Assembly (NCBI GenBank): GCA_964495685.1
Contig: CAZBVQ010000001.1
Location: forward strand, 373,568-437,567
Length of the DNA stretch: 64,000 bases
DNA from: an uncultured Candidatus Saccharibacteria bacterium
Lineage (GTDB): Bacteria > Patescibacteriota > Minisyncoccia > Phycocordibacterales > PALSA-1337
Direction: 5' to 3'
Part shown: positions 6,018-61,818 of the stretch, piece after piece
Layout: each line of letters begins with the position of its first letter
Position numbering within the stretch: the stretch's first letter is position 1
Notes under the pieces: generated by a model
Seen by the model: the letters and a program-made list of their open reading frames with translations, nothing else
Told to the model about the DNA's origin: nothing
The model's database searches: none
Position numbers and translations under genes: made by a program

Positions 6018-7812
6018 AACCGTCGTCGAACAGATCAAGGAGCGCCTGCCGGTCAATGAGGTTATTGGTCAGTATTTGAAATTGGAAAAGTCAGGTAATG
6101 CCTACAAGGCCAAGTGCCCATTTCACAATGAGAAGTCACCCTCATTCTTCGTCTCACCAGATCGTGGGGGTTACTACTGTTTTGGCTGTAATGCCAAAGG
6201 AGACATTTTTACATTTGTGGAACAATTCGAAGGACTCGATTTCCGCGGCGCGCTCAAAGTCCTCGCCGAACGTGCGGGAGTGCAGCTCACCTTCGACAAG
6301 AAAGCAGATGGGGAACGAGATCGTTTGTTCGATATCATGGAGGCCGCTGCGTCCTATTTTGAAGCAGAATACATTCGAGCCAAAGACGTTCAAGACTATG
6401 TGAAGAAACGCGGTATCACCGACACAACTCGCGAAGAGTTCCGTATCGGCTGGGCGCCAGAGGGGTGGCAGTCGCTCATCGATCATCTTCGAGTCAAGAA
6501 GTTTTCTGATTCACTTATAGAGAAAGCGGGACTCGGCAAGAAGACTGACGAAGGTAAATTCTACGATCGTTTCCGTGGTCGTGTGATGTTTCCCATTTTT
6601 GACTCAAGTGGTCGGGTGATCGCTTTTTCGGGACGTATTCTCAAAGATGATGGCAAGTCTGCGAAATATTTGAATAGTCCAGATACACCACTCTATGACA
6701 AATCAATGGTGCTCTACGGTCTCGACAAGGCCAAGAGTGACATTCGTCGCATGAATTACACTATCATGGTCGAAGGACAGATGGACCTCGTCATGTCTCA
6801 TCAGGCAGGGATAAAAAATACAGTTGCATCTTCAGGTACGGCCCTTACCGATGAATCGTTTAGTGAATCTGGCGCAGTGAGTAATCTCGGGCTTGTCCGT
6901 CGCTTGTCGCCAAATGTTATTATCGCCTTCGATTCTGACAGTGCGGGAAGAAAGGCGGCCATGCGTGCCGCGGGCATTGCACTTTCTATGGGTATGGATG
7001 TGAAGATTGCGGACTTGGTCGGCGGCAAAGATCCGGCCGATCTTGTTCTCCACAATCCTGAAGACTGGAAGAACGCACTCCGCTCTGCCAAGCCCATCAT
7101 CGAATTCGAACTTGGCAATGTGATGCGTGATGTGCCAGATAGCAGGAAAGTGGGACGCGCTCTGCGTGAACGAGTTTTCCCATTCCTGGCACGTATCGAG
7201 AGTAGGATGGATCAGGCACATTTCGTGAAGATGATTTCGGACAAGACGAATATTCCAGAAACGGCGGTGTGGGATGATTTGAAGAACGTGAAGGTCGAAC
7301 AAGCGAAGGGGGGCAGCGCGTCTGAGGGACGTTTCGGAGGCCACGAAGGTGGCCGAGAACCAGCTGCGCCGTCAGCAGACGGCGACAGCGTGTCCCGAAG
7401 ACGCGGTGCCCCCGGAGCGGGCCTCGACCTCATCGAGCGTCGCCTCTTCGGTCTTCTTTCGCTCATTGAGAAAACTGAACCCAAAAAGGGTGCTGAGTAT
7501 CGTGCCGCTATCAAGAAAATCGCAGACGCTTCATACGATATGCGCTGGGCCCGTATCGAACCAATGCTCGGTGATGTCGCCTTCGAAGCAGAGGCATTCT
7601 TCGGCAGCGCTCTTGCGGAATGGGATCGTCACATGAAAGAACTCATCGCCAATTTCGAGCAAAATATGGTCAATGAGGAACTTCTCGCTACTATGAATGA
7701 GCTCCGTCAGGCAGAAAAGATCGGAGATACCGCCAAGGTCGCTGAGCTCGCCAAGAAATGTCAGGTCCTGAGTATCAGGAAAGGGGAGATCGGGAAAAGG
7801 ATGAGGGATTAA
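6010..7812 (+). CDS. dnaG: DNA primase
   Basis: CHC2 zinc finger (CPFHNEKSPSFFVSPDRGGYYCFGC), Toprim region (MVEGQMDLV ... DSDSAGRKAA), C-terminal helper domain. TATACT -10 element 8 nt upstream of the ATG. Confidence 0.9.
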   Translation: MNRTVVEQIKERLPVNEVIGQYLKLEKSGNAYKAKCPFHNEKSPSFFVSPDRGGYYCFGCNAKGDIFTFVEQFEGLDFRGALKVLAERAGVQLTFDKKADGERDRLFDIMEAAASYFEAEYIRAKDVQDYVKKRGITDTTREEFRIGWAPEGWQSLIDHLRVKKFSDSLIEKAGLGKKTDEGKFYDRFRGRVMFPIFDSSGRVIAFSGRILKDDGKSAKYLNSPDTPLYDKSMVLYGLDKAKSDIRRMNYTIMVEGQMDLVMSHQAGIKNTVASSGTALTDESFSESGAVSNLGLVRRLSPNVIIAFDSDSAGRKAAMRAAGIALSMGMDVKIADLVGGKDPADLVLHNPEDWKNALRSAKPIIEFELGNVMRDVPDSRKVGRALRERVFPFLARIESRMDQAHFVKMISDKTNIPETAVWDDLKNVKVEQAKGGSASEGRFGGHEGGREPAAPSADGDSVSRRRGAPGAGLDLIERRLFGLLSLIEKTEPKKGAEYRAAIKKIADASYDMRWARIEPMLGDVAFEAEAFFGSALAEWDRHMKELIANFEQNMVNEELLATMNELRQAEKIGDTAKVAELAKKCQVLSIRKGEIGKRMRD

Positions 7813-22066: not shown

Positions 22067-23224
22067 ATGGTCCACGCGCCGATGACTTCGGCGCTTTTTA
22101 AATATTCATTTTCCCCGTATACTTACCCCATGACCACCATCCTCATCATCCTTGTAATCGTCGCCATTCTGGCCAACATTTTCATGTTCGTGTTCTTCAT
22201 GCGCAAGAATCGTGTGGCTGAACAGCCAAAGGACGACACAGGACTGAAGCTTATTCTAGAACAAATCAACGAAATGTCGCGTACTGTAGATCGCAAGGTG
22301 GGAGATTTGACCAAAACTGTTGATCACAAAATCAACGAATCATCCCGCAACGTTCAAGATTCAATGCGCGCGCAACTTTCTGAGTCGTCGAAGCTCATTA
22401 AGGAGGTGACGCAGGGTCTTACCAAGCTTGATGAGACAAACAAGCAGGTGGTGTCATTTGCCGACCAGCTCCAGAACCTCCAAGACATTCTCAAAAATCC
22501 GAAACATCGCGGTATTCTCGGTGAATATTATCTCGAGACACTTCTCAAGAACGTCTTGGCTCCTGGGCAATATCAGATGCAATATCCTTTCAAGAATGGG
22601 GAAATCGTCGATGCGGCTGTTTTCGTCAAAGATAAGATTATTCCCGTCGACTCCAAGTTTTCGTTGGAAAACTACAACAAGTTAGTTGAAGAAAAGAATC
22701 CTGCAGAAAAAGAGAAGCTGGAAAAGGCTTTCGTAGGAGACCTGAAAATCCGTATTCAGGAAACCGCCAAGTATGTCAGGCCTGCAGAGAAGACTATGGA
22801 CTTTGCCTTCATGTTTATTCCGCACGAGGCTATTTATTATGATTTATTGGTCAATAAGATCGGCATGGCGGCTGATGAAACCGATAATTTGATCCAGCGT
22901 GCTGCGAGTAAATATAAGGTTATTATCGTCTCTCCGACATCATTTTTGGCCTATTTGCAAACGGTATTACAGGGCTTGAAGGCCATGCAGATCGAGGAAA
23001 CGGCCAAAGATATCATCAAGCATGTGGGGCAGTTGGGGACTCATCTCAAGAAGTATGAGGATTATCACAATAAGCTCGGAACTTCGCTTTCGACCGTGGT
23101 CAATCATTTCAACAATTCGGGCAAGGAGCTCAAGAAGGTAGATAAGGATGTTCTGCGTATTACAGGGGAGACTCCGGGGATTGATGTGGCACTGATAGAA
23201 AAGCCTGAAACTGAGGAGGAATAG
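22067..23224 (+). CDS. rmuC: DNA recombination protein RmuC
   Basis: N-terminal TM helix (TTILIILVIVAILANIFMFVFF), long coiled coil, C-terminal RmuC-like region. The true start is possibly the internal Met at 22130. Confidence 0.7.
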   Translation: MVHAPMTSALFKYSFSPYTYPMTTILIILVIVAILANIFMFVFFMRKNRVAEQPKDDTGLKLILEQINEMSRTVDRKVGDLTKTVDHKINESSRNVQDSMRAQLSESSKLIKEVTQGLTKLDETNKQVVSFADQLQNLQDILKNPKHRGILGEYYLETLLKNVLAPGQYQMQYPFKNGEIVDAAVFVKDKIIPVDSKFSLENYNKLVEEKNPAEKEKLEKAFVGDLKIRIQETAKYVRPAEKTMDFAFMFIPHEAIYYDLLVNKIGMAADETDNLIQRAASKYKVIIVSPTSFLAYLQTVLQGLKAMQIEETAKDIIKHVGQLGTHLKKYEDYHNKLGTSLSTVVNHFNNSGKELKKVDKDVLRITGETPGIDVALIEKPETEEE

Positions 23225-23329
23225 GGGAGAGGTATTTTCTAGGTGTCCGTTCATGTGCATGCAAGGAAGGATGGATCTGGTAGGCTGAAGTACTGGTATT
23301 TTTGGATAATATGGTGTTATAATTCACAC

Positions 23330-23845
23330 ATGACTAAACCATCATCTTTCCTTTTAATCAAGACCAACCTGAATTCTCTTAGGGTTGTAAGGTCTGTCAA
23401 AGAGAGTCCATTTGTGAAATGGGCAAGTGTCGTGTATGGACCGTATCAGATAGTGGCCTACGTCCAGACTGATACTGATACAGAAATGGCAAATTTTATT
23501 GAAGATTTGCGTTCACGAAGATTCATAACTGAGCTTGATGCTAGAATGGTAAAGGTCATTCCAGATGATGAGAAGCTTACTCTCCCCGAAGTAAAGGCAG
23601 AAAAAGTTGCTGTTCTACTTGTTAATGTTAATTATAAAGAAGAAAAAGAGAGAGTGGTCACTTACAATCTAAGGAAAGTCAAAGGTATAAAGCTGGCGAG
23701 AGCCATGTGGGGCCCCGCTGACATAATCGCGATTGTGGAAGCTGAGGACGCTGAAGCTATGAGAAATAAGATATGTGATGAAGTAAAAACAATGAAAGGT
23801 GTCATTTCGAACACCACATTATACTGTTATCCTAATTCTCTATGA
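23330..23845 (+). CDS. Tandem Lrp/AsnC C-terminal (RAM/ACT-like) ligand-binding domain protein without HTH
   Basis: Two repeats with the AsnC-C pattern (FLLIKTNLNSLRVV ... VYGPYQIVAYVQT ... ; VAVLLVNVNYKEE ... ADIIAIVEAED ...). Start choice (23330 vs 23243) is uncertain. Overlaps the downstream gene by 4 nt. Confidence 0.45.
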   Translation: MTKPSSFLLIKTNLNSLRVVRSVKESPFVKWASVVYGPYQIVAYVQTDTDTEMANFIEDLRSRRFITELDARMVKVIPDDEKLTLPEVKAEKVAVLLVNVNYKEEKERVVTYNLRKVKGIKLARAMWGPADIIAIVEAEDAEAMRNKICDEVKTMKGVISNTTLYCYPNSL

Positions 23846-24963
23846 AAAATAAACCTGTAGCTTTTGGTGCACTTATCTTGGTCATAGTCGCAATTGTATT
23901 GGCCGTTGTTTATTTGCCGACGCGACAGAAGGTGGCTATAGACCCTCTGAAGATCGGTGTAGATTTTCCACTGACAGGTAATCTTGCCAGATATGGCGAG
24001 TGGGGCAAAAGGGCCATTGAGATAGCTTCGGAAGAAACAAATGCCTCGGGAGGTGTTAATGGCTTACCAGTGCAAGTCTTTTTTGAGGACAACCAAGGTG
24101 AACCTTCGAAGGCGCTTTCTGCGTATCAAAAGATGAAAAGTCTAGATGGTATCGACGCAGTAATGACACTCGTAAGTTCTATTGCACTTATTGTCCAGAA
24201 GAGTGCTGAACAGGACAAGATCGTCCAAATGGACACATCTGCGTCGACCCCAGCATACAGTACTCCCAATGACTATTCCTTCAGGACAGGTGTAGTTGCT
24301 ACTCAGCTTGCAAAGGATGCGGCGCATATTCTCCAGGATAAGTTTAATGCCAAAAATATTGCAATTTTAAGTATTAATAACGATTTCGGTAAAGGGATGG
24401 TCGGTGTATTTAAGAGTTCATTCAAGGGTACTATCGTCGTGGAGCAGACATTTAATCAGGATGGGATAGATTTTAGAACTCAGCTTCTGAATTTAAAAAA
24501 ACAAAATGTTGATTTTATATTTTTGGTTGGGCACATAAAAGAGTCCGGTCTTCTTGTTAGACAAGCAAGAGAACTTGGCATCAAAACTCCCATCTTTAGT
24601 GACGTGTATTCGGTTGAGGGACCAGAATTTATCCAAAATGCAGGAGAGCTTGCTGATGGGATAGTGTATCTGGGCATACAATTTGATGCGGATAATAAAA
24701 GCCCTGAGGTTTCAAAATTTGTTACTGCATATCGAGCCAAATACGGCGAAGATCCTGGAGTGTATGCCGCACAAGCATACGACGGTATCATGGCCCTAAT
24801 CAAGGCCTACGATAAATGCCCAGACAATGAGTGCGCCAAGAGACAACTGTTTACGACAGATTTTCAAGGAGTTTCTGGTCGAATCAAATTTGATGAGAAT
24901 GGTGACGTGATAAAAGATGTTGTCCTAAAAACAATAAAAGACGGTAAGTTTGTAAACTATTAA
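23842..24963 (+). CDS. ABC-type branched-chain amino-acid-family substrate-binding protein (Peripla_BP_6-like), N-terminally membrane anchored; no cognate permease or ATPase in the window
   Basis: Signal-anchor (VAFGALILVIVAIVLAVVYL). Periplasmic binding protein type I fold motifs (IGVDFPLTGNLARYGEWGKRAIEIASEE; AILSINNDFGKG; FIFLVGH). Confidence 0.7.
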   Translation: MKNKPVAFGALILVIVAIVLAVVYLPTRQKVAIDPLKIGVDFPLTGNLARYGEWGKRAIEIASEETNASGGVNGLPVQVFFEDNQGEPSKALSAYQKMKSLDGIDAVMTLVSSIALIVQKSAEQDKIVQMDTSASTPAYSTPNDYSFRTGVVATQLAKDAAHILQDKFNAKNIAILSINNDFGKGMVGVFKSSFKGTIVVEQTFNQDGIDFRTQLLNLKKQNVDFIFLVGHIKESGLLVRQARELGIKTPIFSDVYSVEGPEFIQNAGELADGIVYLGIQFDADNKSPEVSKFVTAYRAKYGEDPGVYAAQAYDGIMALIKAYDKCPDNECAKRQLFTTDFQGVSGRIKFDENGDVIKDVVLKTIKDGKFVNY

Positions 24964-25056
24964 AAGAGCATTTACCGGGCTCTCTTTCAAAGAGAGGTCT
25001 TCGGGAAACATTGGTGCTATTCTATTGCTGAAACTGAGGAGGAATAGGGGTATTTT

Positions 25057-25094
25057 CCAGGCCCGGCCTAGAAAATATTCTAGGCCGGGCCTGG
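25057..25094. repeat. 38-nt perfect palindrome CCAGGCCCGGCCTAGAAAATATTCTAGGCCGGGCCTGG followed by a T-run
   Basis: Perfect dyad including the centre AATATT. Lies between the SBP gene stop and the rplU extended -10 element (TGTATAATG at about 25118-25126). Confidence 0.7.
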
Positions 25095-25116
25095 AATTTG
25101 CGTTTTTTGGGTCTTC

Positions 25117-35422: not shown

Positions 35423-35455
35423 TTTTTTGTCTCGGCTCCGCGGCCAGGGATCGAA
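35423..35455 (-). repeat. Partial duplicate of the tRNA-Asn 3' end (acceptor 3' strand plus half T-arm plus flanking T-run)
   Basis: TTTTTGTCTCGGCTCCGCGGCCAGGGATCGAA at 35423-35455 against TTTTTGTCTTGGCTCCGCGGCCAGGGATCGAA at 35610-35642 (32/33 identical). Each copy is preceded by a different terminator hairpin. Confidence 0.6.
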
Positions 35456-35619
35456 GCTTACAGCTTCAGTACAGGCTTCGTGTCTCGCTTCGTCCTACAC
35501 TTCGTTTCGGACTCGCTGCGACATACTCAGCCTTTTCGATCCCTGGCTCGCAAAGCGTGCAGACGCTTTGCTCGCGTCGCCTCAACAAAAAATACTTCCC
35601 GAAAGAAGTATTTTTGTCT

Positions 35620-35984
35620 TGGCTCCGCGGCCAGGGATCGAACCTGGGACATCCTCGTTACGTTTGGTCTCCTATTACTAGGGGTACGGACTATATCATC
35701 TCCAATGAAACTCGTGTCAAAGCTTCATTACGGAGTAAGGCGCTTCCCAGAGCATATTGCTCCAGTACTCCCACAAGGGGATAGTCTCTGAACCTTTCCC
35801 TCACATGGATTCTTGCTATGTCATCGGTGTACATAACAAAGATTCATGTGAGGGACTTGGCTGCTGATTGCCCACATTTGCATGTTGGGGTTTCCGGCAA
35901 TTCACCTTATTTTTCAGCCTAAGTTTCCTTAGGAAGCTGCTATTCTCTAACAGCGAGGCGCTCTACCGGCTGAGCTACCGCGGA
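35620..35984 (-). tRNA. tRNA-Asn (anticodon GUU) interrupted by a 289-nt group I intron
   Basis: 5' exon at plus 35950-35984 gives TCCGCGG-TA-GCTC-AGCCGGTA-GAGC-G-CCTCG-CTGT. 3' exon at plus 35620-35660 gives TAA-CGAGG-ATGTC-CCAGG-TTCGATC-CCTGG-CCGCGGA-G-CCA. Spliced cloverleaf is canonical with anticodon loop CUGUUAA. Intron (plus 35661-35949) follows U35 and ends in G. P1 is GCTGT/GCAGC with U-G, P2 is CCTAAG-GAAA-CTTAGG. Core elements P AATTGCCGGAAA, Q AATCAGCAGC, R GTTCAGAGACTA and S GATATAGTCC are all present. Confidence 0.8.
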
Positions 35985-43178: not shown

Positions 43179-44192
43179 ATGGGTATCTTTTCCTCGAAAC
43201 TTGGCATCGATCTTGGTACAGCCAATACGCTGGTGTATATTCCCGGCAAGGGCATCGTGCTCAATGAACCCTCAGTCGTAGCTGTTTCTGAAGTAGACAA
43301 GAAAGTGTTGGCGGTCGGTAATGAAGCCAAAGAAATGGTCGGCCGTACGCCAGACAATATTGTGGCGTATCGTCCTATGCGTGATGGTGTCATCGCCGAC
43401 TATCGCGTGACCGAAGCGATGTTGCGTTACTTCATCGACAAAGCTCTCGGTCGTTTTTCATTTTTCAAGCCTGATGTCATGGTCTCTGTGCCGGCAGGAA
43501 TTACGTCGACCGAACGTCGCGCCGTCGTCGAAGCCGCCCTCCGTGCTGGTGCCAAGAATGCGTATGTGGTCAAAGAACCAATTCTTGCTGCTATCGGTGC
43601 TGGTATCCCGATCCAGGAGCCGCGCGGACATATGATTGTCGATATTGGTGGTGGTACTACGGACGTGGCAGTCATTTCGCTTGGTGGTATCGTCTCGTCG
43701 ACGTCGGTCAAGGTTGCAGGCAACAAAGTAGATGCCGCCATCGCTGATTATGTGAAGAAAACGTTTAACCTAGCTATCGGCGAGCACATGGCTGAAATCA
43801 TCAAGATTACTATTGGCTCCGCAATTCCGCTCGATCAAGAACTTGCCATGCAAGTCAAAGGTCGTGATTTTATTTCAGGCTTGCCTCGCTCTACCGAAAT
43901 CAAAACTAATGAGATTGTCAAAGCTATCGCTGCTCCTCTTCGCGATATGATCAAGGCGATCAAGGATGTGCTCCAAGAAACTCCTCCAGAATTGGCTGCT
44001 GATATTATCGATCAGGGTATTACGATGACTGGTGGTTCGTCCATGCTCCGCAATTTGCCCGAATTGGTATTCCGCCGCACTGGCGTGAAGGCACAGTTGG
44101 CTGATGAGCCACTTCTCTGTGTGGTGAAGGGGACAGGTATAGCGCTGGAGCATTTGAATGTGTATAAGAAGACGATGATGAGTAAACGCTAA
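43179..44192 (+). CDS. mreB: Rod-shape determining protein MreB (paralog 1)
   Basis: Actin-fold motifs (GIDLGTANTLVY; MIVDIGGGTTDVAVIS; MTGGSSML). Promoter TTGAAC-16-TATAGT at 43141-43168. Confidence 0.9.
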   Translation: MGIFSSKLGIDLGTANTLVYIPGKGIVLNEPSVVAVSEVDKKVLAVGNEAKEMVGRTPDNIVAYRPMRDGVIADYRVTEAMLRYFIDKALGRFSFFKPDVMVSVPAGITSTERRAVVEAALRAGAKNAYVVKEPILAAIGAGIPIQEPRGHMIVDIGGGTTDVAVISLGGIVSSTSVKVAGNKVDAAIADYVKKTFNLAIGEHMAEIIKITIGSAIPLDQELAMQVKGRDFISGLPRSTEIKTNEIVKAIAAPLRDMIKAIKDVLQETPPELAADIIDQGITMTGGSSMLRNLPELVFRRTGVKAQLADEPLLCVVKGTGIALEHLNVYKKTMMSKR

Positions 44193-48654: not shown

Positions 48655-49722
48655 ATGACACTCAAGGAGCGCACAGAAAAAATACTCGGCCGTTTTTCGA
48701 ATGATATTGGTATCGATCTTGGCACAGCCAATACACTGGTCTATGTGCGCGGCAAAGGCATCGTCGTCAACGAACCATCAGTCGTCGCCGTCAACCAGAA
48801 GACGGGTCAGGTCGTCGCCGTAGGTCAGACTGCCAAGGATATGCTCGGACGCACACCTCAGCACATCACCGCAGTCCGTCCGTTGGTCGATGGAGTCATC
48901 TCTGATTTCGAGGTGACCGAAGAAATGCTCGCTTATCTGATGCGACGTGCCGGCGACTATATGCCCAAGAAATTCCTCGGCCCACGTGTGGTCGTCGGCG
49001 TACCTTCTGGGGTGACCAACGTCGAGGTACGTGCTGTCCGTGATGCTACAAAAAATGCTGGTGCCCGCGAAGTCTACATCGTCGAGCAGCCGATGGCGGG
49101 AGCCATCGGTATCCGCCTCCCAGTCCATGATCCGGTGGGCAGTATGATCATAGATATTGGTGGTGGTACGACTGATATCGCTGTTATTTCATTGGGCGGT
49201 ATTGTCCGTTCCAAGAATTTGAAAATAGCTGGTGACAAACTCAACAACGATATTATTTCCTACATTCGTAACGAATTCAAAATCCTGATTGGTGAGACTA
49301 CTGCAGAACAGGTCAAGAAAGACGTCGGCGCTGTCATTCCAGGCGAACCACTCGAGACGACTATCCGTGGTCGCGATCTCATCACGGGTTTGCCGCGCGA
49401 AGTGATCATTACCGACTCAGATATTCGAGAAGCTATCGGCCAATCCGTCGATACCTTGGTCGAAGCTACCAAAGAGGTACTCGAGACGACTCCGCCAGAA
49501 ATTCTTGCCGATGTGATGAAGCGAGGTATCCACTTGGTCGGTGGTGGTGCACTCATCAAAGGTCTCGATCAGCTTCTCATTGATACGCTCAATATTCCCG
49601 TCACCATTGCTGAAGATCCACTCACTGCTATTGCGCGTGGCGCGGGTGTGATCCTCGAAGATTTGGACAAGTTCCGTTCAGTACTTATTGAGAGTGAAGA
49701 TGACTTACCTTCAAACAAGTAG
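48655..49722 (+). CDS. mreB: Rod-shape determining protein MreB (paralog 2, in the mreBCD-mrdA operon)
   Basis: Same actin-fold motifs as paralog 1, about 65-70% identical over the core. Confidence 0.9.
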   Translation: MTLKERTEKILGRFSNDIGIDLGTANTLVYVRGKGIVVNEPSVVAVNQKTGQVVAVGQTAKDMLGRTPQHITAVRPLVDGVISDFEVTEEMLAYLMRRAGDYMPKKFLGPRVVVGVPSGVTNVEVRAVRDATKNAGAREVYIVEQPMAGAIGIRLPVHDPVGSMIIDIGGGTTDIAVISLGGIVRSKNLKIAGDKLNNDIISYIRNEFKILIGETTAEQVKKDVGAVIPGEPLETTIRGRDLITGLPREVIITDSDIREAIGQSVDTLVEATKEVLETTPPEILADVMKRGIHLVGGGALIKGLDQLLIDTLNIPVTIAEDPLTAIARGAGVILEDLDKFRSVLIESEDDLPSNK

Positions 49723-55605: not shown

Positions 55606-56703
55606 ATGTCACTCTCCATCGGCATCGTGGGACTTCCCAACGTCGGTAAATCGACGCTTTTTAATGCACTTACTAGGAAGAGCGTCCTTGTGGCCAACTA
55701 TCCATTCGCGACCATTGACCCATCAGTGGGCGTGGTTGCGGTACCTGATGAACGACTCCATAAGCTAGCTGAATTTTCAAAGACGCAGAAAACAGTTCCG
55801 GCAGTCGTCGAATTTGTAGATATTGCAGGGCTCGTCAAAGGTGCCTCAGCTGGCGAAGGTCTCGGCAACCAATTCCTGACCAATATTCGTGAGACTGATG
55901 CTATCGCCGAGGTGGTCCGCATATTTGAGGATGACAATATCATTCATGTCGATGGCAAAATCAATCCACTCAAAGATATCGAGGTCATCAACCTCGAACT
56001 CATTCTGGCTGATATCCAGACCGTGACCAAGCGTCATGGCAATTTGGGCAAAGAAGCACGATCGGGCAAGAAGGAGGCCTTGATTGAGCTTGGTCTCGTG
56101 GAGAAGATTAAGAAGGCTCTGGAGGCGGGCAAACTGGCATCCTCGGTTATTCCTGATGAATTCGAGGCACCTTATATGAAGTCTCTACACCTCCTCACAT
56201 CGAAGCCATTCATGTACGTGCTCAACAAGAAGTCAGGTGGCAAGAATTTGGATGAGACCAATGATGAACGTTATCAAGCCTTGATGAAATTCTTTGCTGA
56301 CAATAAGGCTTCATGGGTTATCGTCGATGCCGGAGTGGAACATGAGCTCAAAGATCTAGAAGGGGATGAGAAGAAAGAATTTCGTGAAAGCTTGGGCGCG
56401 CACGACGATGGCATTAACGACCTAATCAAGAAAGGCTATGAGCTTCTGAATTTGATCACCTACTTCACTACTGGTGAAAAAGAAACTCGCGCATGGACTA
56501 TTCATCGTGGTTGGACAGCACCTGAAGCAGGAACTGCAATCCATGGTGATTTCAAAGACAAATTTATTCGTGCAGAAGTGATCGAGTGGGATAAATTGCT
56601 CGAAGCAGGTTCGTTCGGTGTTGCTCGCGAGAAGGGGTGGCTTCGAACAGAAGGGAAGGAATATGTGGTTAAGGATGGGGATGTGATGGAGTTTAAGGTG
56701 TAG
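55606..56703 (+). CDS. ychF: Ribosome-binding ATPase YchF (Obg-family GTPase)
   Basis: G1 (GIVGLPNVGKST), G3, coiled-coil insert and C-terminal TGS domain (EYVVKDGDVMEFKV). Internal Met at 55606 chosen as the start. Confidence 0.9.
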   Translation: MSLSIGIVGLPNVGKSTLFNALTRKSVLVANYPFATIDPSVGVVAVPDERLHKLAEFSKTQKTVPAVVEFVDIAGLVKGASAGEGLGNQFLTNIRETDAIAEVVRIFEDDNIIHVDGKINPLKDIEVINLELILADIQTVTKRHGNLGKEARSGKKEALIELGLVEKIKKALEAGKLASSVIPDEFEAPYMKSLHLLTSKPFMYVLNKKSGGKNLDETNDERYQALMKFFADNKASWVIVDAGVEHELKDLEGDEKKEFRESLGAHDDGINDLIKKGYELLNLITYFTTGEKETRAWTIHRGWTAPEAGTAIHGDFKDKFIRAEVIEWDKLLEAGSFGVAREKGWLRTEGKEYVVKDGDVMEFKV

Positions 56704-56774
56704 GCAAAAAATCACCCGCTTCGACCTGAGCCGTGGCGGGATGAAATTTAAAATTTATTAGATAATTAACACAC

Positions 56775-57419
56775 ATGAAAAACTCACAAAAAGGTTCGGT
56801 GGCAGTAATTTTATTAGTAATTATTATTGTAGTTTTGGTAGGGGTAATTGGTTGGATTTATTTCAAACAGTCAGCTCAGGTGAGTCAAGTTTCTGATTCA
56901 ACATTGACCGTAGACACCCAATCAGTAACCTCAAATCCCAATAATACGATTCAACCTAAAAAGGGTATTGTTCCAAGTAATCAGAACTCGTCACTTAAAA
57001 CTTACAGGAATACGCAGTACAGTTTTTCATTCCAATATCCTCAAGGATATTCTATAACTGATGGGAAACCAAACAGTCAAACGGTTGGCGTATGGTTTGT
57101 TTGGCTATCAGACGCTAGCCAAGATACAGTGACAGGAATTAACGTATATCAATCAGATTTAACACTCGATCAATTTGTTGCAAACGAAAAACAAATCTTA
57201 TCTAGTTCTCCAGGCACAATTTCTTTCACTGAGGCTGGTCGGGTATCACTTGGGGGAAATACTGCAACCAAAGTGAACTATTCATTCTCGGGTAGGAATA
57301 GTGGCACGTCTGAAATTTACTATTTCAAGAAAAATGATTTCGTCTATAGAATTCAGCTTAATCAAACGATTGATTCTCAGGTTAAACAAGATATTCTTTC
57401 AACATTCAACGTAAAGTAA
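56775..57419 (+). CDS. Membrane-anchored hypothetical protein encoded in an AT-rich cassette
   Basis: N-terminal TM (VAVILLVIIIVVLVGVIGWIYF). Compositionally distinct (clearly lower GC than its surroundings). Flanked by direct repeats of the ychF 3' end. Confidence 0.45.
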   Translation: MKNSQKGSVAVILLVIIIVVLVGVIGWIYFKQSAQVSQVSDSTLTVDTQSVTSNPNNTIQPKKGIVPSNQNSSLKTYRNTQYSFSFQYPQGYSITDGKPNSQTVGVWFVWLSDASQDTVTGINVYQSDLTLDQFVANEKQILSSSPGTISFTEAGRVSLGGNTATKVNYSFSGRNSGTSEIYYFKKNDFVYRIQLNQTIDSQVKQDILSTFNVK

Positions 57420-57460
57420 AGACGTAAATAGTTTTATCAGGCTCAAGTCGCACCCCTAAA

Positions 57461-57506
57461 GGAGTATGTGGTCAAGGATGGGGATGTCATAGAGTTTAAG
57501 GTCTAA
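57461..57506 (+). repeat. Diverged direct repeat of the last 46 nt of ychF (40/46 identical to 56658-56703)
   Basis: GGAGTATGTGGTCAAGGATGGGGATGTCATAGAGTTTAAGGTCTAA against GGAATATGTGGTTAAGGATGGGGATGTGATGGAGTTTAAGGTGTAG. Encodes EYVVKDGDVIEFKV*. Confidence 0.7.
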
Positions 57507-57647
57507 CCCCCCTTGCTTTATTTTCAGTTATGTGTTTATATGCACCACTGAATTGCATGCAATGGTCCATGTACTCGCTGACCTAGACGGTTGGGAGTTT
57601 GAAACATGATCGGGAAGCATGCAGAATAATGAAAGGTTAGGGATAAC

Positions 57648-58124
57648 ATGAAACTGGTAAATCGTCTGGTGTCCACGATGGTCGTGGCGCTCGTGGCAAT
57701 CATCGGCACATCGTCGGCAGTGGCGACTGTAGGAGGGAGTGAAGACGTCAAGGTGGAAATACTCTCGGTCCACACAAGCGTCGGGCTGGTCTGCACCAAT
57801 AGCGTCGAGCACGGGATGTCTCACCACACACTGGGTGTGTGGGACCCCGGTTGATGGGAGATCTCGTCGTTCTGCAACGGTGACCAAGTGACGGTCACGA
57901 ACACTGACTGCGCGACCTCGACGGTCACGGTGAACGGAACCTTGCTCGGCGCGTCGGACACGGCGTCCGCGTCTTCATCTGCCAAAGTTACTGTCTATAC
58001 CCTGAGCCATAGCCAGTACATTACGTGGGACCCGCTGGCGGAAACATATGTCGGTCATGTTGACGTCGGTGTCTCGAAGACCTACGAGGAGTTTTGTCTG
58101 CAGCCGATTGAGCCGGAGGATTGA
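57648..58124 (+). pseudogene. GC-rich secreted-protein ORF interrupted by an in-frame TGA (57852-57854); possibly a pseudogene or two short ORFs
   Basis: ORFs 57648-57854 and 57888-58124 are in the same frame and contiguous through a single TGA. Signal peptide at the N-terminus. Local GC is clearly higher than the window average. Confidence 0.3.
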
Positions 58125-58911
58125 TCCCCTCGAGCTCTTGTTCAAGTCTTACACCCGCTGGGAACACCGGCGGGCTTTTTGTACATGACGTCTTCCATTA
58201 AGTCCCTAAATATGGTATAAACTCTCCCGGAATGTACGTTGTCGTAGGGCGTGTATTCCATAGGTTCTTCAACTAAACTGTCGGTTAACCCTTGGAGGAT
58301 TCGCATGAATAATGTCGGTGCTCTGTCACTGTTCGGGCTCAAAGCTGGGTTAGGCTGCTTTTTCTTGTTCGCCTGCCTAACTGGCGCAATCATGTTCGCA
58401 TTTTTGCTACCCTTGTTGCCGAATGATTCGGCGGACTCATCACGAAGGAGCGTTTGATATGGAAAAAATTATTTTACATCCCGTCCTGGATGCACCACCA
58501 CCTTCTCCGTTGATTCCGATTGGTACACTGTCGAAACACATGCTGGTTGCGGCTCTGAGTTGTATTTTGGTTGCTGCTGGACTCTGTGTTGTGTGGTACA
58601 TCTACTACCACTGAAAGGAGATTATGTCAGTGCGCAGATCTATGTTATCGTCATCTCGAGGGCGTGAGCGACCTTGGGGATTCAGTCGGGAACCGATACA
58701 CGTACCCCCTTGCTTCATGAGTGAACCGTCACGTGAAAATCGTATCACGTTCACTCCTTTGTTCGATTGGCTTGACAGTTGTGTACGTTGGATTCGTGCC
58801 AAGTTCAGCAACCGCCCTCGCTGAACTGATTGTGTTCAGTTTTTCTTCACGCCGCTCATCGTTGGGCGGCGTTTTTTGTAAAATAGGTCTATTTGAGCTA
58901 TGATATGAGCC

Positions 58912-61818
58912 ATGAAGAAGTCCATCTCCAAGCCCACGGGGTTGTCCGTATATGACCACAAGGCTATCGAATCCAAGTGGCAGAAAGTGTGGGAGAAGAA
59001 AAAGTCGTATCAAGTAAAGGAGGATTTAAATAAAAAGAAGTTTTACGGTCTCATCGAATTTCCATATCCATCCGGAGATGGTCTCCATGTCGGTCACATC
59101 CGCAGCAACACGGCAATGGACGTCATTGCCCGCAAGCGCCGCGCTGAAGGGTTCAATGTGCTGTATCCGATTGGTTGGGACGCTTTTGGCCTACCGACAG
59201 AGAACTATGCCATCAAGACAGGTATCCAGCCAGCTATTGTTACAAAAAAGAATACGGACACATTCCGCCGTCAACTCAAGGCACTTGGCTTCTCATTTGA
59301 TTGGTCACGTGAAATAGACACTACTGATCCTGCGTATTACAAATGGACGCAGTGGATATTCCTGCAATTCTTCAAGAAGGGATTGGCGTACAAAAAGAAG
59401 ATGACCATCAATTGGTGTCCGAAGGATTTGATCGGTCTAGCCAATGAAGAAGTCGTGGATGGAAAATGTGAGCGTTGTGGTACAGCTGTAGAAAAGCGCG
59501 AGAAAGAACAGTGGATGTTGGCGATTACGAAGTATGCGGAGAGGTTGGATAAGGATCTAGATAAGACGCAATTTCTAGAGAAGATCAAAATTCAGCAGAG
59601 GAATTGGATAGGGAAGAGTGAGGGGGCGGAGATTGATTTTGAAATACGAAATGAAAAAATAACAGTCTTTACGACACGACCGGATACTCTTTTCGGGGTG
59701 ACATACATCGTCTTGGCACCTGAGCACGTATTGATACAGCAACTACTTTCTGTAGTCGAAAACAAAAAGGATATCGAGGAATATATTTCAAAGGCAAAGA
59801 AGGAGTCAGAGATGGAGCGCACTGATGCTTCCAAAGAAAAAACAGGTGTTGAGCTGAAGGGTATCAAAGCCATCAATCCTGCCAATAATGAAGAGGTGCC
59901 GGTGTGGATCGCGGACTATGTCCTGGCCGACTATGGTACGGGTGCGGTCATGGCGGTGCCTGCGCATGATGAGCGAGATTACGCATTTGCCAAGAAATAT
60001 GGATTGCCAATAAGGGACGTCGTCATGCCTATAAGAGTCGATGCTTCAAATCCACATGTTCATGGTAAGAAGGTTGTGGAGCGTAAGGCCGTACAAGCAA
60101 TTATTGTGGATCCGAAAACAAAGAAGATTCTTTGCCTCAAATGGAAAAAGCAACCGTGGACAACGTTTGTTGTTGGGGGTGTTGAGGGTAACGAAGATAG
60201 TGTCGAGGCGGCGCGTAGAGAAATTGCTGAAGAGACTGGATACACAGATCTCAAACTCGTACGTGTCCTCGGGGGGCCAGTACGAAGTGAATTTTTTGCC
60301 GCACACAAAGATGTCAATCGTATCGCGTATTTCAATGCAATTCATTTTGAGCTTGCGAGCGACAAACGGACACCGTTGACTGATGAGGAGCAAGAGAAGC
60401 ATGAAGTAATCTGGATGGATGCTGATGCTATCGGACCTGGTGTTATGCAATGTGGAGAGCTTGATATTTGGATGAACCGATTCAAGACGGGCAACGATGT
60501 TGTTCTTGAAGATGGCGAGCTCATCAATTCAGGATCCTTCAACGGTAAGGAGTCATTATTAGTTAAAAAAGAAATTACTGAATCTGTCGGTGGGAAGTGG
60601 ATCACCACCTTCAAACTCCGCGACTGGATCTTCTCCCGCCAGCGCTACTGGGGTGAGCCGATTCCCGTCATCAACTGTGAAAAATGTGGCCTTGTCCCTG
60701 TCCCAGAAAAAGATTTGCCCGTGAAGTTGCCAGCGGTAAAGAATTACAAGCCCACTGAAACAGGCGAGTCACCATTGGCTGCAATTACGAAGTGGGTCAA
60801 CACCAAGTGTCCGCAATGCAAAGGTAAAGCCACCCGCGAAACTGACACCATGCCAAATTGGGCGGGTTCAAGTTGGTACTATTTGCGCTATGCTGATGCA
60901 CATAATAAGAAAGAATTCGCCTCAAAAAAGAGTCTGGACTATTGGACACCAGTCGATTGGTACAATGGTGGTATGGAACACACCACGCTCCACTTACTCT
61001 ATTCTCGTTTCTGGCACAAATTCCTCTTTGATCTTGGATTGGTACCGACTGATGAACCATATACCAAACGTACCTCCCATGGCCTCATTTTGGCCGAAGG
61101 TGGGGTCAAAATGTCGAAGTCAAAGGGCAACGTCATCAACCCTGATAGTATTGTCGAAACAGTCGGCGCTGACAGTTTGCGCCTCTATGAGATGTTCATG
61201 GGACCATTCGACCAGCCGATTTCGTGGGATACCAATAATATTGCTGGGGTCAGACGTTTCTTGGAACGAGTCTGGAAGTTGAGAGAGAAAGTAGTAAACT
61301 CTAAACTCGAAACTCTGAATTCTAAACAAATTCAAAATTCGAAATTTGAAATTCAAAACGCAGCAGACAAAATCATCCACAAAACTATCAAGAAAGTCAG
61401 TGACGATATCGAAGCGATGCGCTTCAATACGGCCGTGAGTGCACTCATGATCGCCCTCAACGAACTGGAGAAGATAGAAACTATCGGTACACAGCAGTAC
61501 GCATCATTCCTGCAGCTTCTGGCACCCTTCGCGCCTCATATTGTCGAAGAATTGTGGGCATCACTCGGAAATAAGACGTCTGTCCATCTCGCTCCGTGGC
61601 CGACGTATGATGCGTCGTTGGCTGTGGATAATGAGGTGACTATCATGGTGCAAATCAATGGCAAAGTGCGGGGCTCATTCATGGTGCCTGTGGATTCTAG
61701 TAGGGAAGAGCTCGAATCCCGTGCCAAAGCTCTTCCCGAAGCGGCCAAGTGGATCGCTGGTGGTCAGATCAAGAAAGTTATCGTGGTACTCAACAAATTG
61801 GTCAATATTGTTGTCTAG
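58912..61818 (+). CDS. leuS: Leucine--tRNA ligase with a NUDIX hydrolase domain inserted between the CP1/editing region and the leucyl-specific domain
   Basis: HIGH (HVGH), editing-domain T-rich region (TTRPDTLFGV), KMSKS, anticodon-binding C-terminus. Perfect Nudix box GGVEGNEDSVEAARREIAEETGY in an insert of about 140 aa at roughly nt 60040-60490. Two tandem terminators at 58820-58880 upstream. Confidence 0.9.
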   Translation: MKKSISKPTGLSVYDHKAIESKWQKVWEKKKSYQVKEDLNKKKFYGLIEFPYPSGDGLHVGHIRSNTAMDVIARKRRAEGFNVLYPIGWDAFGLPTENYAIKTGIQPAIVTKKNTDTFRRQLKALGFSFDWSREIDTTDPAYYKWTQWIFLQFFKKGLAYKKKMTINWCPKDLIGLANEEVVDGKCERCGTAVEKREKEQWMLAITKYAERLDKDLDKTQFLEKIKIQQRNWIGKSEGAEIDFEIRNEKITVFTTRPDTLFGVTYIVLAPEHVLIQQLLSVVENKKDIEEYISKAKKESEMERTDASKEKTGVELKGIKAINPANNEEVPVWIADYVLADYGTGAVMAVPAHDERDYAFAKKYGLPIRDVVMPIRVDASNPHVHGKKVVERKAVQAIIVDPKTKKILCLKWKKQPWTTFVVGGVEGNEDSVEAARREIAEETGYTDLKLVRVLGGPVRSEFFAAHKDVNRIAYFNAIHFELASDKRTPLTDEEQEKHEVIWMDADAIGPGVMQCGELDIWMNRFKTGNDVVLEDGELINSGSFNGKESLLVKKEITESVGGKWITTFKLRDWIFSRQRYWGEPIPVINCEKCGLVPVPEKDLPVKLPAVKNYKPTETGESPLAAITKWVNTKCPQCKGKATRETDTMPNWAGSSWYYLRYADAHNKKEFASKKSLDYWTPVDWYNGGMEHTTLHLLYSRFWHKFLFDLGLVPTDEPYTKRTSHGLILAEGGVKMSKSKGNVINPDSIVETVGADSLRLYEMFMGPFDQPISWDTNNIAGVRRFLERVWKLREKVVNSKLETLNSKQIQNSKFEIQNAADKIIHKTIKKVSDDIEAMRFNTAVSALMIALNELEKIETIGTQQYASFLQLLAPFAPHIVEELWASLGNKTSVHLAPWPTYDASLAVDNEVTIMVQINGKVRGSFMVPVDSSREELESRAKALPEAAKWIAGGQIKKVIVVLNKLVNIVV

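Follow-up and report, generated by a model that had tools for sequence, protein, structure and literature searches.

How does the last stretch of a protein-coding gene come to lie a second time beyond a foreign-looking gene? The locus that raises this question lies in a stretch of 64,000 nucleotides (nt) of contig CAZBVQ010000001.1, from an uncultured Candidatus Saccharibacteria bacterium, which we refer to as a whole as the window. Here the 3' end of ychF is present once as the working end of the gene and once as an orphan copy in the spacer before leuS, with a single AT-rich gene, p214, between the two. Our analysis suggests that this arrangement probably arose by site-specific (Campbell-type) insertion at a bacterial attachment site (attB) formed by the 3' end of ychF, which would have left an integrase-less cassette or scar.

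Two copies of the ychF end around one gene

The initial annotation had described a direct repeat of the ychF 3' end around an AT-rich gene, and both a reading of the sequence and a repeat finder confirm it. Features are named below by the attachment-site positions (attL, attR) that they would occupy.

55606..56703, plus strand: ychF, the gene targeted, 365 aa (the identical protein matches Pfam MMR_HSR1/YchF-GTPase_C; metagenome-assembled genomes, MAGs, of Patescibacteria have orthologues at 90% identity)
56656..56703, plus strand: repeat copy 1, attL position, the functional last 16 ychF codons (sequence read, repeat finder)
56674-56703, plus strand: canonical 30-nt core within copy 1, its boundary GATGG set by the attP/attL alignment given below
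56704..56774, plus strand: flank after copy 1, made up of TAG and then GCAAAAAA, a hairpin whose stem pairs CCCGC (56715-56719) with GCGGG (56736-56740), and the AT-rich stretch before p214 (sequence read)
56775..57419, plus strand: cargo gene p214, AT-rich, for a membrane-anchored PsbP_2-like extracytoplasmic protein
57420..57458, plus strand: 39-nt spacer from the p214 stop to copy 2 (sequence read; the arm model described below, run with nhmmer, has no match in the window)
57459..57506, plus strand: repeat copy 2, attR position, the orphan ychF 3' end (sequence read, repeat finder)
57507..58911, plus strand: rest of the ychF-leuS spacer, with a GC-rich ORFan, terminators and small open reading frames (ORFs)
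58912..61818, plus strand: leuS, the conserved right-hand neighbour of the variable spacer (ychF-leuS synteny in ~30 relatives)

The direct repeats bracket the insert and leave ychF intact, as the upstream copy completes the gene in frame, and copy 2 lies outside every ORF of at least 30 aa. The gene ends in ...AAGGAATATGTGGTTAAGGATGGGGATGTGATGGAGTTTAAGGTGTAG and copy 2 reads AAGGAGTATGTGGTCAAGGATGGGGATGTCATAGAGTTTAAGGTCTAA, so that the encoded peptides, each followed by the stop, are KEYVVKDGDVMEFKV and KEYVVKDGDVIEFKV, respectively. With the Lys codon counted, 42 of 48 nt are identical (40/46 for the shorter 46-mer), for which a 42-mer search allowing up to 3 mismatches gave a chance expectation of zero. 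All six mismatches (A/G, T/C, G/C, G/A, G/C, G/A) fall at codon third positions, an outcome with a probability of (1/3)^6, or about 0.0014, if they were placed at random; five are silent or in the stop codon, and one changes Met to Ile.

The insert also differs from its surroundings in composition. The sole gene between the repeats, p214, encodes 214 aa with an N-terminal transmembrane anchor and a weak match to PsbP_2 (E=2.6e-8), and has a GC content of 0.363 and a GC content at third codon positions (GC3) of 0.30, compared with a GC3 of 0.50-0.51 for ychF and leuS. Beyond copy 2, the ORF at 57648-58124, which encodes a 158-aa ORFan with a signal peptide, has a GC of 0.574 and a GC3 of 0.71. 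Measured against the window (mean 0.483, sd 0.047 for 200-nt windows), the p214 stretch and the GC-rich ORF both fall within the extreme <1% of 200-nt windows in the 64 kb, and sliding-window GC together with GC3 thus bears out the description of the spacer as a compositional mosaic. The GC-rich islet is separate foreign or orphan DNA.

These observations bear on a simple alternative, a local tandem duplication in which the two copies of the ychF end later diverged and the genes between them are native to the locus. Such a duplication would fit the closeness of the copies, which lie 803 nt apart, and the rare terminal Val (FKV before the stop) common to both, but we consider it very improbable: the sequences 3' of the two copies are unrelated (GCAAAAAATCACCCGC.. 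vs CCCCCCTTGCTTT..), cargo and islet are both compositional outliers, and a neutral copy would hardly have diverged by 6/48 at third positions alone. It is also at odds with the same architecture around unrelated cargo in other genomes and with the phage attP/attL evidence, both presented below. The unrelated flanks and the recurrence with other cargo instead uphold the earlier claim of a target-end duplication.

Recurrence of the ychF end in relatives and phages

The closest matches to the YchF of the window, at 83-90% identity, are proteins from MAGs of Paceibacteria/Taylorbacteria-type Patescibacteria. The same strain is present in at least eight other samples at an identity of at least 99.96%, and 10/10 loci of this strain contain the cassette. 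Across ~30 relatives, ychF is followed by leuS with a spacer of 274-5704 nt that has no genes in common with the window; the ychF-leuS spacer is a hypervariable slot between two conserved genes.

Scanning 38 Patescibacteria loci within 3 kb downstream of ychF for sequences with at least 22/30 identity to a panel of cores, we found 12 orphan cores in 8 of the loci, all 12 co-oriented with ychF and all 12 closing with a stop codon. Control sequence totalling 313 kb (opposite strand and upstream regions) gave no real match, the two listed being slicing artefacts that re-find the gene end. In one relative (L003; YchF 85% identical), an AT-rich gene of the Fic family (PF02661) comes after the ychF stop and precedes a 55-nt copy of the ychF end, whose 4 mismatches are all synonymous or in the stop codon; in another (L020), a 30-nt copy of the ychF end lies 320 nt downstream with a 71-aa membrane ORF between; and the closest relative (L002) has three orphan cores. 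Arrays of 3-4 cores are present in L002, L010, L241, L188 and L192, spaced by 73-571 nt in the last four, and each core, including those internal to an array, is followed by an A-rich run plus a hairpin or promoter flank, many array units having a promoter-like TTGACA just after the core. A core scan of metagenomes added two-copy loci (L141, L179), orphan-only fragments (L189, L212) and others. The cargo varies by locus: the Fic gene in L003, the 71-aa membrane ORF in L020, a 195-aa ORF in L179 and p214-like genes in L141, L242 and L091. The proposal that insertions at gene 3' ends recur is thus supported for ychF by 8/38 related loci, and for rmuC and a tRNA gene by repeats within the window, described in the last section.

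On one of the orphan-only fragments (L189, 2792-2880), two orphan cores lie ~30 nt apart, GATGGGGATGTAATTGAGTTTAAGATTTGA and then GAGGGGTGATTGAATTTAGAATTTAG, followed by GCAAAAAG and a hairpin; we read this pair as tandem att relics without cargo.

Scanning IMG/VR for the peptide-level pattern of the ychF end revealed two contigs of one tailed phage (L092, L093; portal, capsid, protease, terminase-like and methylase genes) with an intergenic orphan core, reading ...caaattcgtaa, then GATGGGGATGTTATGGAGTTTAAGATATAA, then CAACCCCATCTTC...; this 30-nt core has no ychF before it and lies 133 nt upstream of a gene for 120 aa. In three metagenome loci (L169, L132, L151), a full ychF and its stop are followed by CA[AC][CT][CA]CCATCTTCTA.. 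and, beyond it, by genes homologous to those of the phage and arranged in the same order; the homologues of the 120-aa gene are 69-73% identical, and in L169 the synteny reaches the methylase and the terminase. Comparison of the phage site (attP) with the three attL sequences places the boundary: left of GATGG the sequences are unrelated, being phage arm in one and ychF coding sequence in the others, and from GATGG through the core and the P' arm they are aligned. Because the attP core and the prophages joined to ychF align from GATGG, the last 30 nt of ychF can be taken as the attB of phages whose attP matches it. In L101, a related phage whose ATPase is 88% identical, a tyrosine integrase gene (PF00589, E=1.5e-17) lies ~650 nt from the homologous gene.

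Within the wider family of this phage in IMG/VR (L095-L128), the AAA-ATPase gene lies 0.3-3 kb from the contig end in most of 34 related phage contigs, and contigs of the family tend to break near the att/integrase region; one contig of 59.9 kb (L101/L120) has two copies of the AAA-ATPase gene.

Orphan cores resemble one another across genomes. For 16 of 21, the closer match is an orphan core of another genome and not the end of the resident ychF; core codon 3 is AGT or GGT in 15/21 orphans and GAT in 14/15 genes, and ATA, found at core codon 5 in 10/21 orphans, occurs there in 0/15 genes. Copy 2 of the window has the orphan-type centre (GTC ATA), yet GAT at codon 3. Judged by these states, the orphan cores appear to constitute an element-borne sequence lineage. 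Six cassettes (L091, L179, L242, L145, L158, L141) further share a conserved arm of 60-140 nt directly upstream of the orphan core (TACTTGCTATATAWAAACGTCTTGGTA...AAGACGRGTTTGAMA; nhmmer E 1e-22 to 1e-33) around cargo that differs among the six, a conservation that suggests a family rather than random decay. L242 has the canonical order of ychF core, promoter-like flank, p214-like gene, terminator, arm and second core. The cargo of L242 and L141 has only the N-terminal leader (MKNxQKGS..GVIGWMYFKQ) in common with p214, whose sole full-length homologue, p209 (P0122), is 70% identical and encoded on L091. The p209 gene does not adjoin ychF, yet it is bracketed by a partial core (GAGTTTAAGGTCTAG, then GC..) and by an arm plus core.

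At 7170-7243 of the same locus, part of a related MAG, the TGA stop codon of dus, a gene upstream of that for p209, lies inside an AGT-type orphan ychF core, GGTAGTGTGATAG, and the L091 cassette array is attached to the 3' end of this other gene, not to ychF.

Proposed site-specific entry and competing explanations

Taken together, these results lead us to propose that in this clade of Patescibacteria, temperate phages and small integrative cassettes use the 3' end of ychF as an attB. A circular element with a mimic of the last ~30-55 nt of ychF would recombine with the gene end, most likely by means of a tyrosine integrase, and thereby rebuild an intact ychF (copy 1) while leaving an orphan copy 2 on the far side of the insert. 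The insert in the window would then be a unit of the single AT-rich p214 gene without a recombinase, whether as a cassette that lacks an integrase and is moved by one acting in trans or as what is left of a larger element after decay. The crossover may be placed within the identical block GAGTTTAAGGT, so that copy 1 would combine a host-derived left part (the clade-typical GATGTGATG) with an element-derived right part (G TAG GCAAAAAA.., the hairpin and the p214 upstream region), and copy 2 an element-derived left part (..GATGTCATA, of orphan type) with the old host flank on the right (C TAA CCCCCC..). The element-derived right part is comparable to 'C TAG GC..' in L091(b), and 'TAG GC' followed by an A/T-rich run is also found 3' of cores in L091(b), L002, L004, L010 and L241; the flank at 56704..56774 may accordingly be the element-side (P') arm. 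From the sequences we infer this entry route, the place of the crossover and an integrase acting in trans, and the crossover so placed would account for every difference between copies 1 and 2.

The initial annotation had proposed a mechanism that was recombinase-independent or trans-acting. Its second half remains plausible, as these are cassettes without a recombinase; the first half is not supported, in view of the attP-like core of the phage, the prophages joined to ychF at that core, the tyrosine integrase of the related phage and the orphan-core lineage.

Several observations weigh against site-specific insertion at this locus. Integrases are absent from the cassette, the 64-kb window and 39 related ychF loci as searched with a crude motif regular expression and tblastn, and so are homologues of phage proteins. 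We found neither an empty site nor a circular form of the window cassette; even the nearest relatives reach only ~90% identity in YchF, and their spacers are unrelated, and no empty-site relative came to light because p214 has a single homologue and the 158-aa ORF none (zero homologues in 5.8 billion proteins). The phage's own integrase is not seen on L093, both phage contigs ending 106 nt beyond the core, and viral scans for the conserved arm, AGT/GGT-type cores and the rmuC core returned 0 matches each. The window cassette is itself non-canonical, having no conserved arm and only 39 nt after the p214 stop, and its orphan copy includes 48 nt of ychF (18 extra nt) rather than ~30-33, with full coding capacity kept. 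Finally, the sequence that follows copy 1 looks like that which follows ychF in relatives, and by itself this would suggest an unrecombined attB; we dropped that view of copy 1, since an A-rich run plus a hairpin or promoter flank of this kind stands after every array core.

A metagenome scan for the exact P' arm of the phage gave 0 matches. A free element with the window's own 48-nt version was not found, and the attP-like core of L092/L093 matches the site in general. In one relative (L038, ~60-1780), an ORF for a large serine recombinase (571-codon open frame) lies directly upstream of ychF and may be part of another mobile element on the 5' side.

For the window locus and L003, import without a recombinase is a serious, if less likely, alternative. 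The ychF tail of a related strain would have arrived with its neighbouring genes by homology-facilitated illegitimate recombination, joined through homology at one end and illegitimately at the other, or an aberrantly excised circle bearing an attL-type ychF tail would have been integrated by RecA through the 48 nt of homology; either way, the tail of a second functional ychF allele would be left. Such import would explain why copy 2 reaches 18 nt past the canonical core in perfect frame with all differences at third positions, why the window cassette has no conserved arm, and why L003 likewise has a long tail and no arm (55 nt, 4 synonymous differences); a hypervariable spacer between conserved flanks is also what flank-mediated exchange would produce. 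We nevertheless consider it unlikely, because it leaves unexplained the GATGG boundary shared by most orphans and the phage attP, the element-type states common to orphans of different genomes (including ATA/GTC in copy 2 of the window), and the strict orientation and restriction to 3' ends, and because it treats two independent illegitimate joins, at -48 and -55, as coincidence.

A different kind of repeat system could also be imagined. Integron gene cassettes, and clusters of attC sites lacking integron-integrases (CALINs), consist of short units in array, most with a single ORF and none with a recombinase, each unit bounded by a similar recombination site. The ychF arrays, whose short units end in a similar ~30-nt site and contain no recombinase, superficially look like them, and the variable repeats of the template/variable pairs in diversity-generating retroelements (DGRs) sit at gene 3' ends; a functional RNA or regulatory duplicate would be a third option. 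We give almost no credence to any of these. Cores fold no better than shuffled sequences (z-scores ~0), and Rfam searches of the arm-bearing loci returned nothing relevant; no IntI is seen near ychF in the 39 loci; and the core is a mimic of ychF coding sequence. A DGR was rejected on the grounds that the mismatches are not limited to adenines and the spacer contains no reverse transcriptase-like ORF, and an integron or CALIN in the strict sense on the grounds that there is no attC hairpin and no tyrosine recombinase near ychF in the 39 loci. The ychF units differ from integron cassettes also in the lack of an integron integrase and attI, in a site that mimics coding sequence and in the TTGACA after the core in many of them.

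A looser analogy is nonetheless worth stating, doubtful as we hold it to be: the ychF end could be the docking site of an integron-like gene-cassette system in Paceibacteria-type Patescibacteria, whose recombinase-less units (a promoter, one gene for a small surface or membrane protein, a 60-140-nt arm and a 30-nt ychF-mimic core) would be captured, stacked and exchanged by a trans-acting tyrosine recombinase, phage-borne or chromosomal. If true, this would provide epibionts of reduced genome size with a dedicated route to vary their surface proteins.

The mechanism of site-specific insertion that we favour would be a familiar one, in which an element integrates at the 3' end of a conserved gene and itself brings the sequence that replaces this end. 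The prophages e14 and phage 21 lie in the 3' end of icd in Escherichia coli, where a replacement 3' end keeps the protein intact. The window locus is similar in its insertion inside the 3' end of a conserved gene, its mostly synonymous replacement end and the displaced original end left as an orphan on the far side. In contrast to these prophages, which have their own integrase, many genes and a duplicated segment of ~165 nt, the window unit consists of one gene without an integrase and has a core of 30-48 nt.

Cis-mobilizable elements (CIMEs), for example at the fda 3' end in streptococci, retain attL and attR and lack genes for integration or transfer; they are defined as decay products of integrative and conjugative or integrative and mobilizable elements (ICEs, IMEs), are moved by conjugation of a partner and undergo tandem accretion (PMC5704250). 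The window cassette likewise keeps attL and attR without integration and transfer genes. Unlike CIMEs, the ychF cassettes are much smaller (0.15-1.2 kb), several have a common conserved arm, and the complete elements seen at the ychF site are tailed phages only, with no ICE or IME seen. Tycheposon islands of Prochlorococcus target tRNA genes and usually carry a tyrosine recombinase (bioRxiv 10.1101/2020.12.28.424599). They resemble the ychF arrays in that repeated integration at one site yields cargo arrays split by partial target copies, with degenerate remnants beside phage-satellite-like members, and differ in that the main target here is the end of a protein gene, although the window also has a partial tRNA repeat (35424-35645). 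In pneumococci, a prophage attB of 14-26 nt lies upstream of ychF, in the promoter region between the DUF951 gene/dnaN side and ychF (PMC6375853, PMC8637289). That att site also adjoins ychF, but not its 3' coding end, and organism and sequence are unrelated. It is the only ychF-associated prophage site that we found in the literature, where we found no report of a ychF-3'-end site or cassette family; a paper on patescibacterial phages, in the portion available, describes prophages with predicted att sites and names none at ychF.

Patescibacteria, also known as the candidate phyla radiation (CPR), have very small genomes in which few mobile elements have been described. A conserved and readily recognised attB at the ychF end would account for the hypervariable ychF-leuS spacer, would allow uncultured phages to be linked to Patescibacteria hosts through attP-ychF matches, and would mark a point at which lineages swap small secreted and membrane proteins, likely determinants of host-cell attachment. 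For annotation, we caution that orphan 'ychF 3' ends' would be scars, not pseudogenes or assembly errors.

Other gene-end repeats and neighbouring features

A direct-repeat search of the window (14-nt seed, maximum spacing 8 kb) yielded four families, of which one is a terminator hairpin and the other three start at the 3' end of a gene, namely ychF, rmuC and a tRNA gene. The last two comprise the following features.

23205..23243, plus strand: rmuC 3' end (rmuC = 22067-23224) plus 19 nt, first repeat copy
23330..24963, plus strand: AT-rich cargo between the rmuC repeats, encoding a protein with an AsnC-type ligand domain and a binding protein of the Peripla_BP_6 family
25028..25062, plus strand: second copy of the rmuC repeat, running into the terminator hairpin 25056-25095
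35424..35645, minus strand: tRNA 3'-end repeat, copies 35611-35645 and 35424-35458, 94% identical

The architecture that the initial annotation had described at rmuC is present as claimed, with an exact 23-nt repeat (23205-23227 / 25028-25050), resuming after a 4-nt gap into the terminator, around AT-rich cargo with a GC3 of 0.36-0.38 compared with 0.56 for rmuC. Among the loci compared, rmuC relatives amounted to one truncated homologue. The tRNA repeat consists of the last 26 nt of the tRNA plus 9 nt (35 nt), recurring 187 nt downstream. The tRNA gene itself (35984->35620, minus strand) is interrupted by a 292-nt group I intron (35668-35959; RF00028, 81 bits) and was missed by ARAGORN; with an anticodon loop of CUGUUA it is probably Asn-GUU. 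Partial tRNA repeats are a textbook integrase scar, and this one lends weight to the idea that integrating elements have repeatedly entered the genome. Like the ychF repeat, those at rmuC and the tRNA gene are probably scars, broadly of one kind.

The remainder of the ychF-leuS spacer, which contains no third core above shuffle level between copy 2 and leuS, includes these features downstream of the GC-rich ORF.

58154-58174: terminator
58305-58457 and 58459-58614: small membrane ORFs (~50 aa each)
58624-58824: 66-aa ORF
58820-58840 and 58849-58872: two tandem terminator-like hairpins

The in-frame TGA (57852-57854) that the initial annotation had singled out in the GC-rich ORF loses its interest on comparison within the strain. 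The codon is TGG in five other samples, and the TGA form, which truncates the 158-aa ORFan, occurs in this genome and two other assemblies; we thus rejected TGA recoding in favour of a strain-level TGG>TGA nonsense single-nucleotide polymorphism in an otherwise intact ORF.

Downstream, LeuS (968 aa) has a NUDIX domain (PF00293; GGVEGNEDSVEAARREIAEETGY) inserted between its synthetase/editing and anticodon-binding parts; the insert region differs among relatives, and the LeuS of L020, at 1146 aa, has a further insert. Elsewhere in the window, two MreB-like paralogues (43179-44192, 48655-49722) share a stretch of 85 nt that is 84% identical near their 5' ends (43201-43285, 48707-48791).

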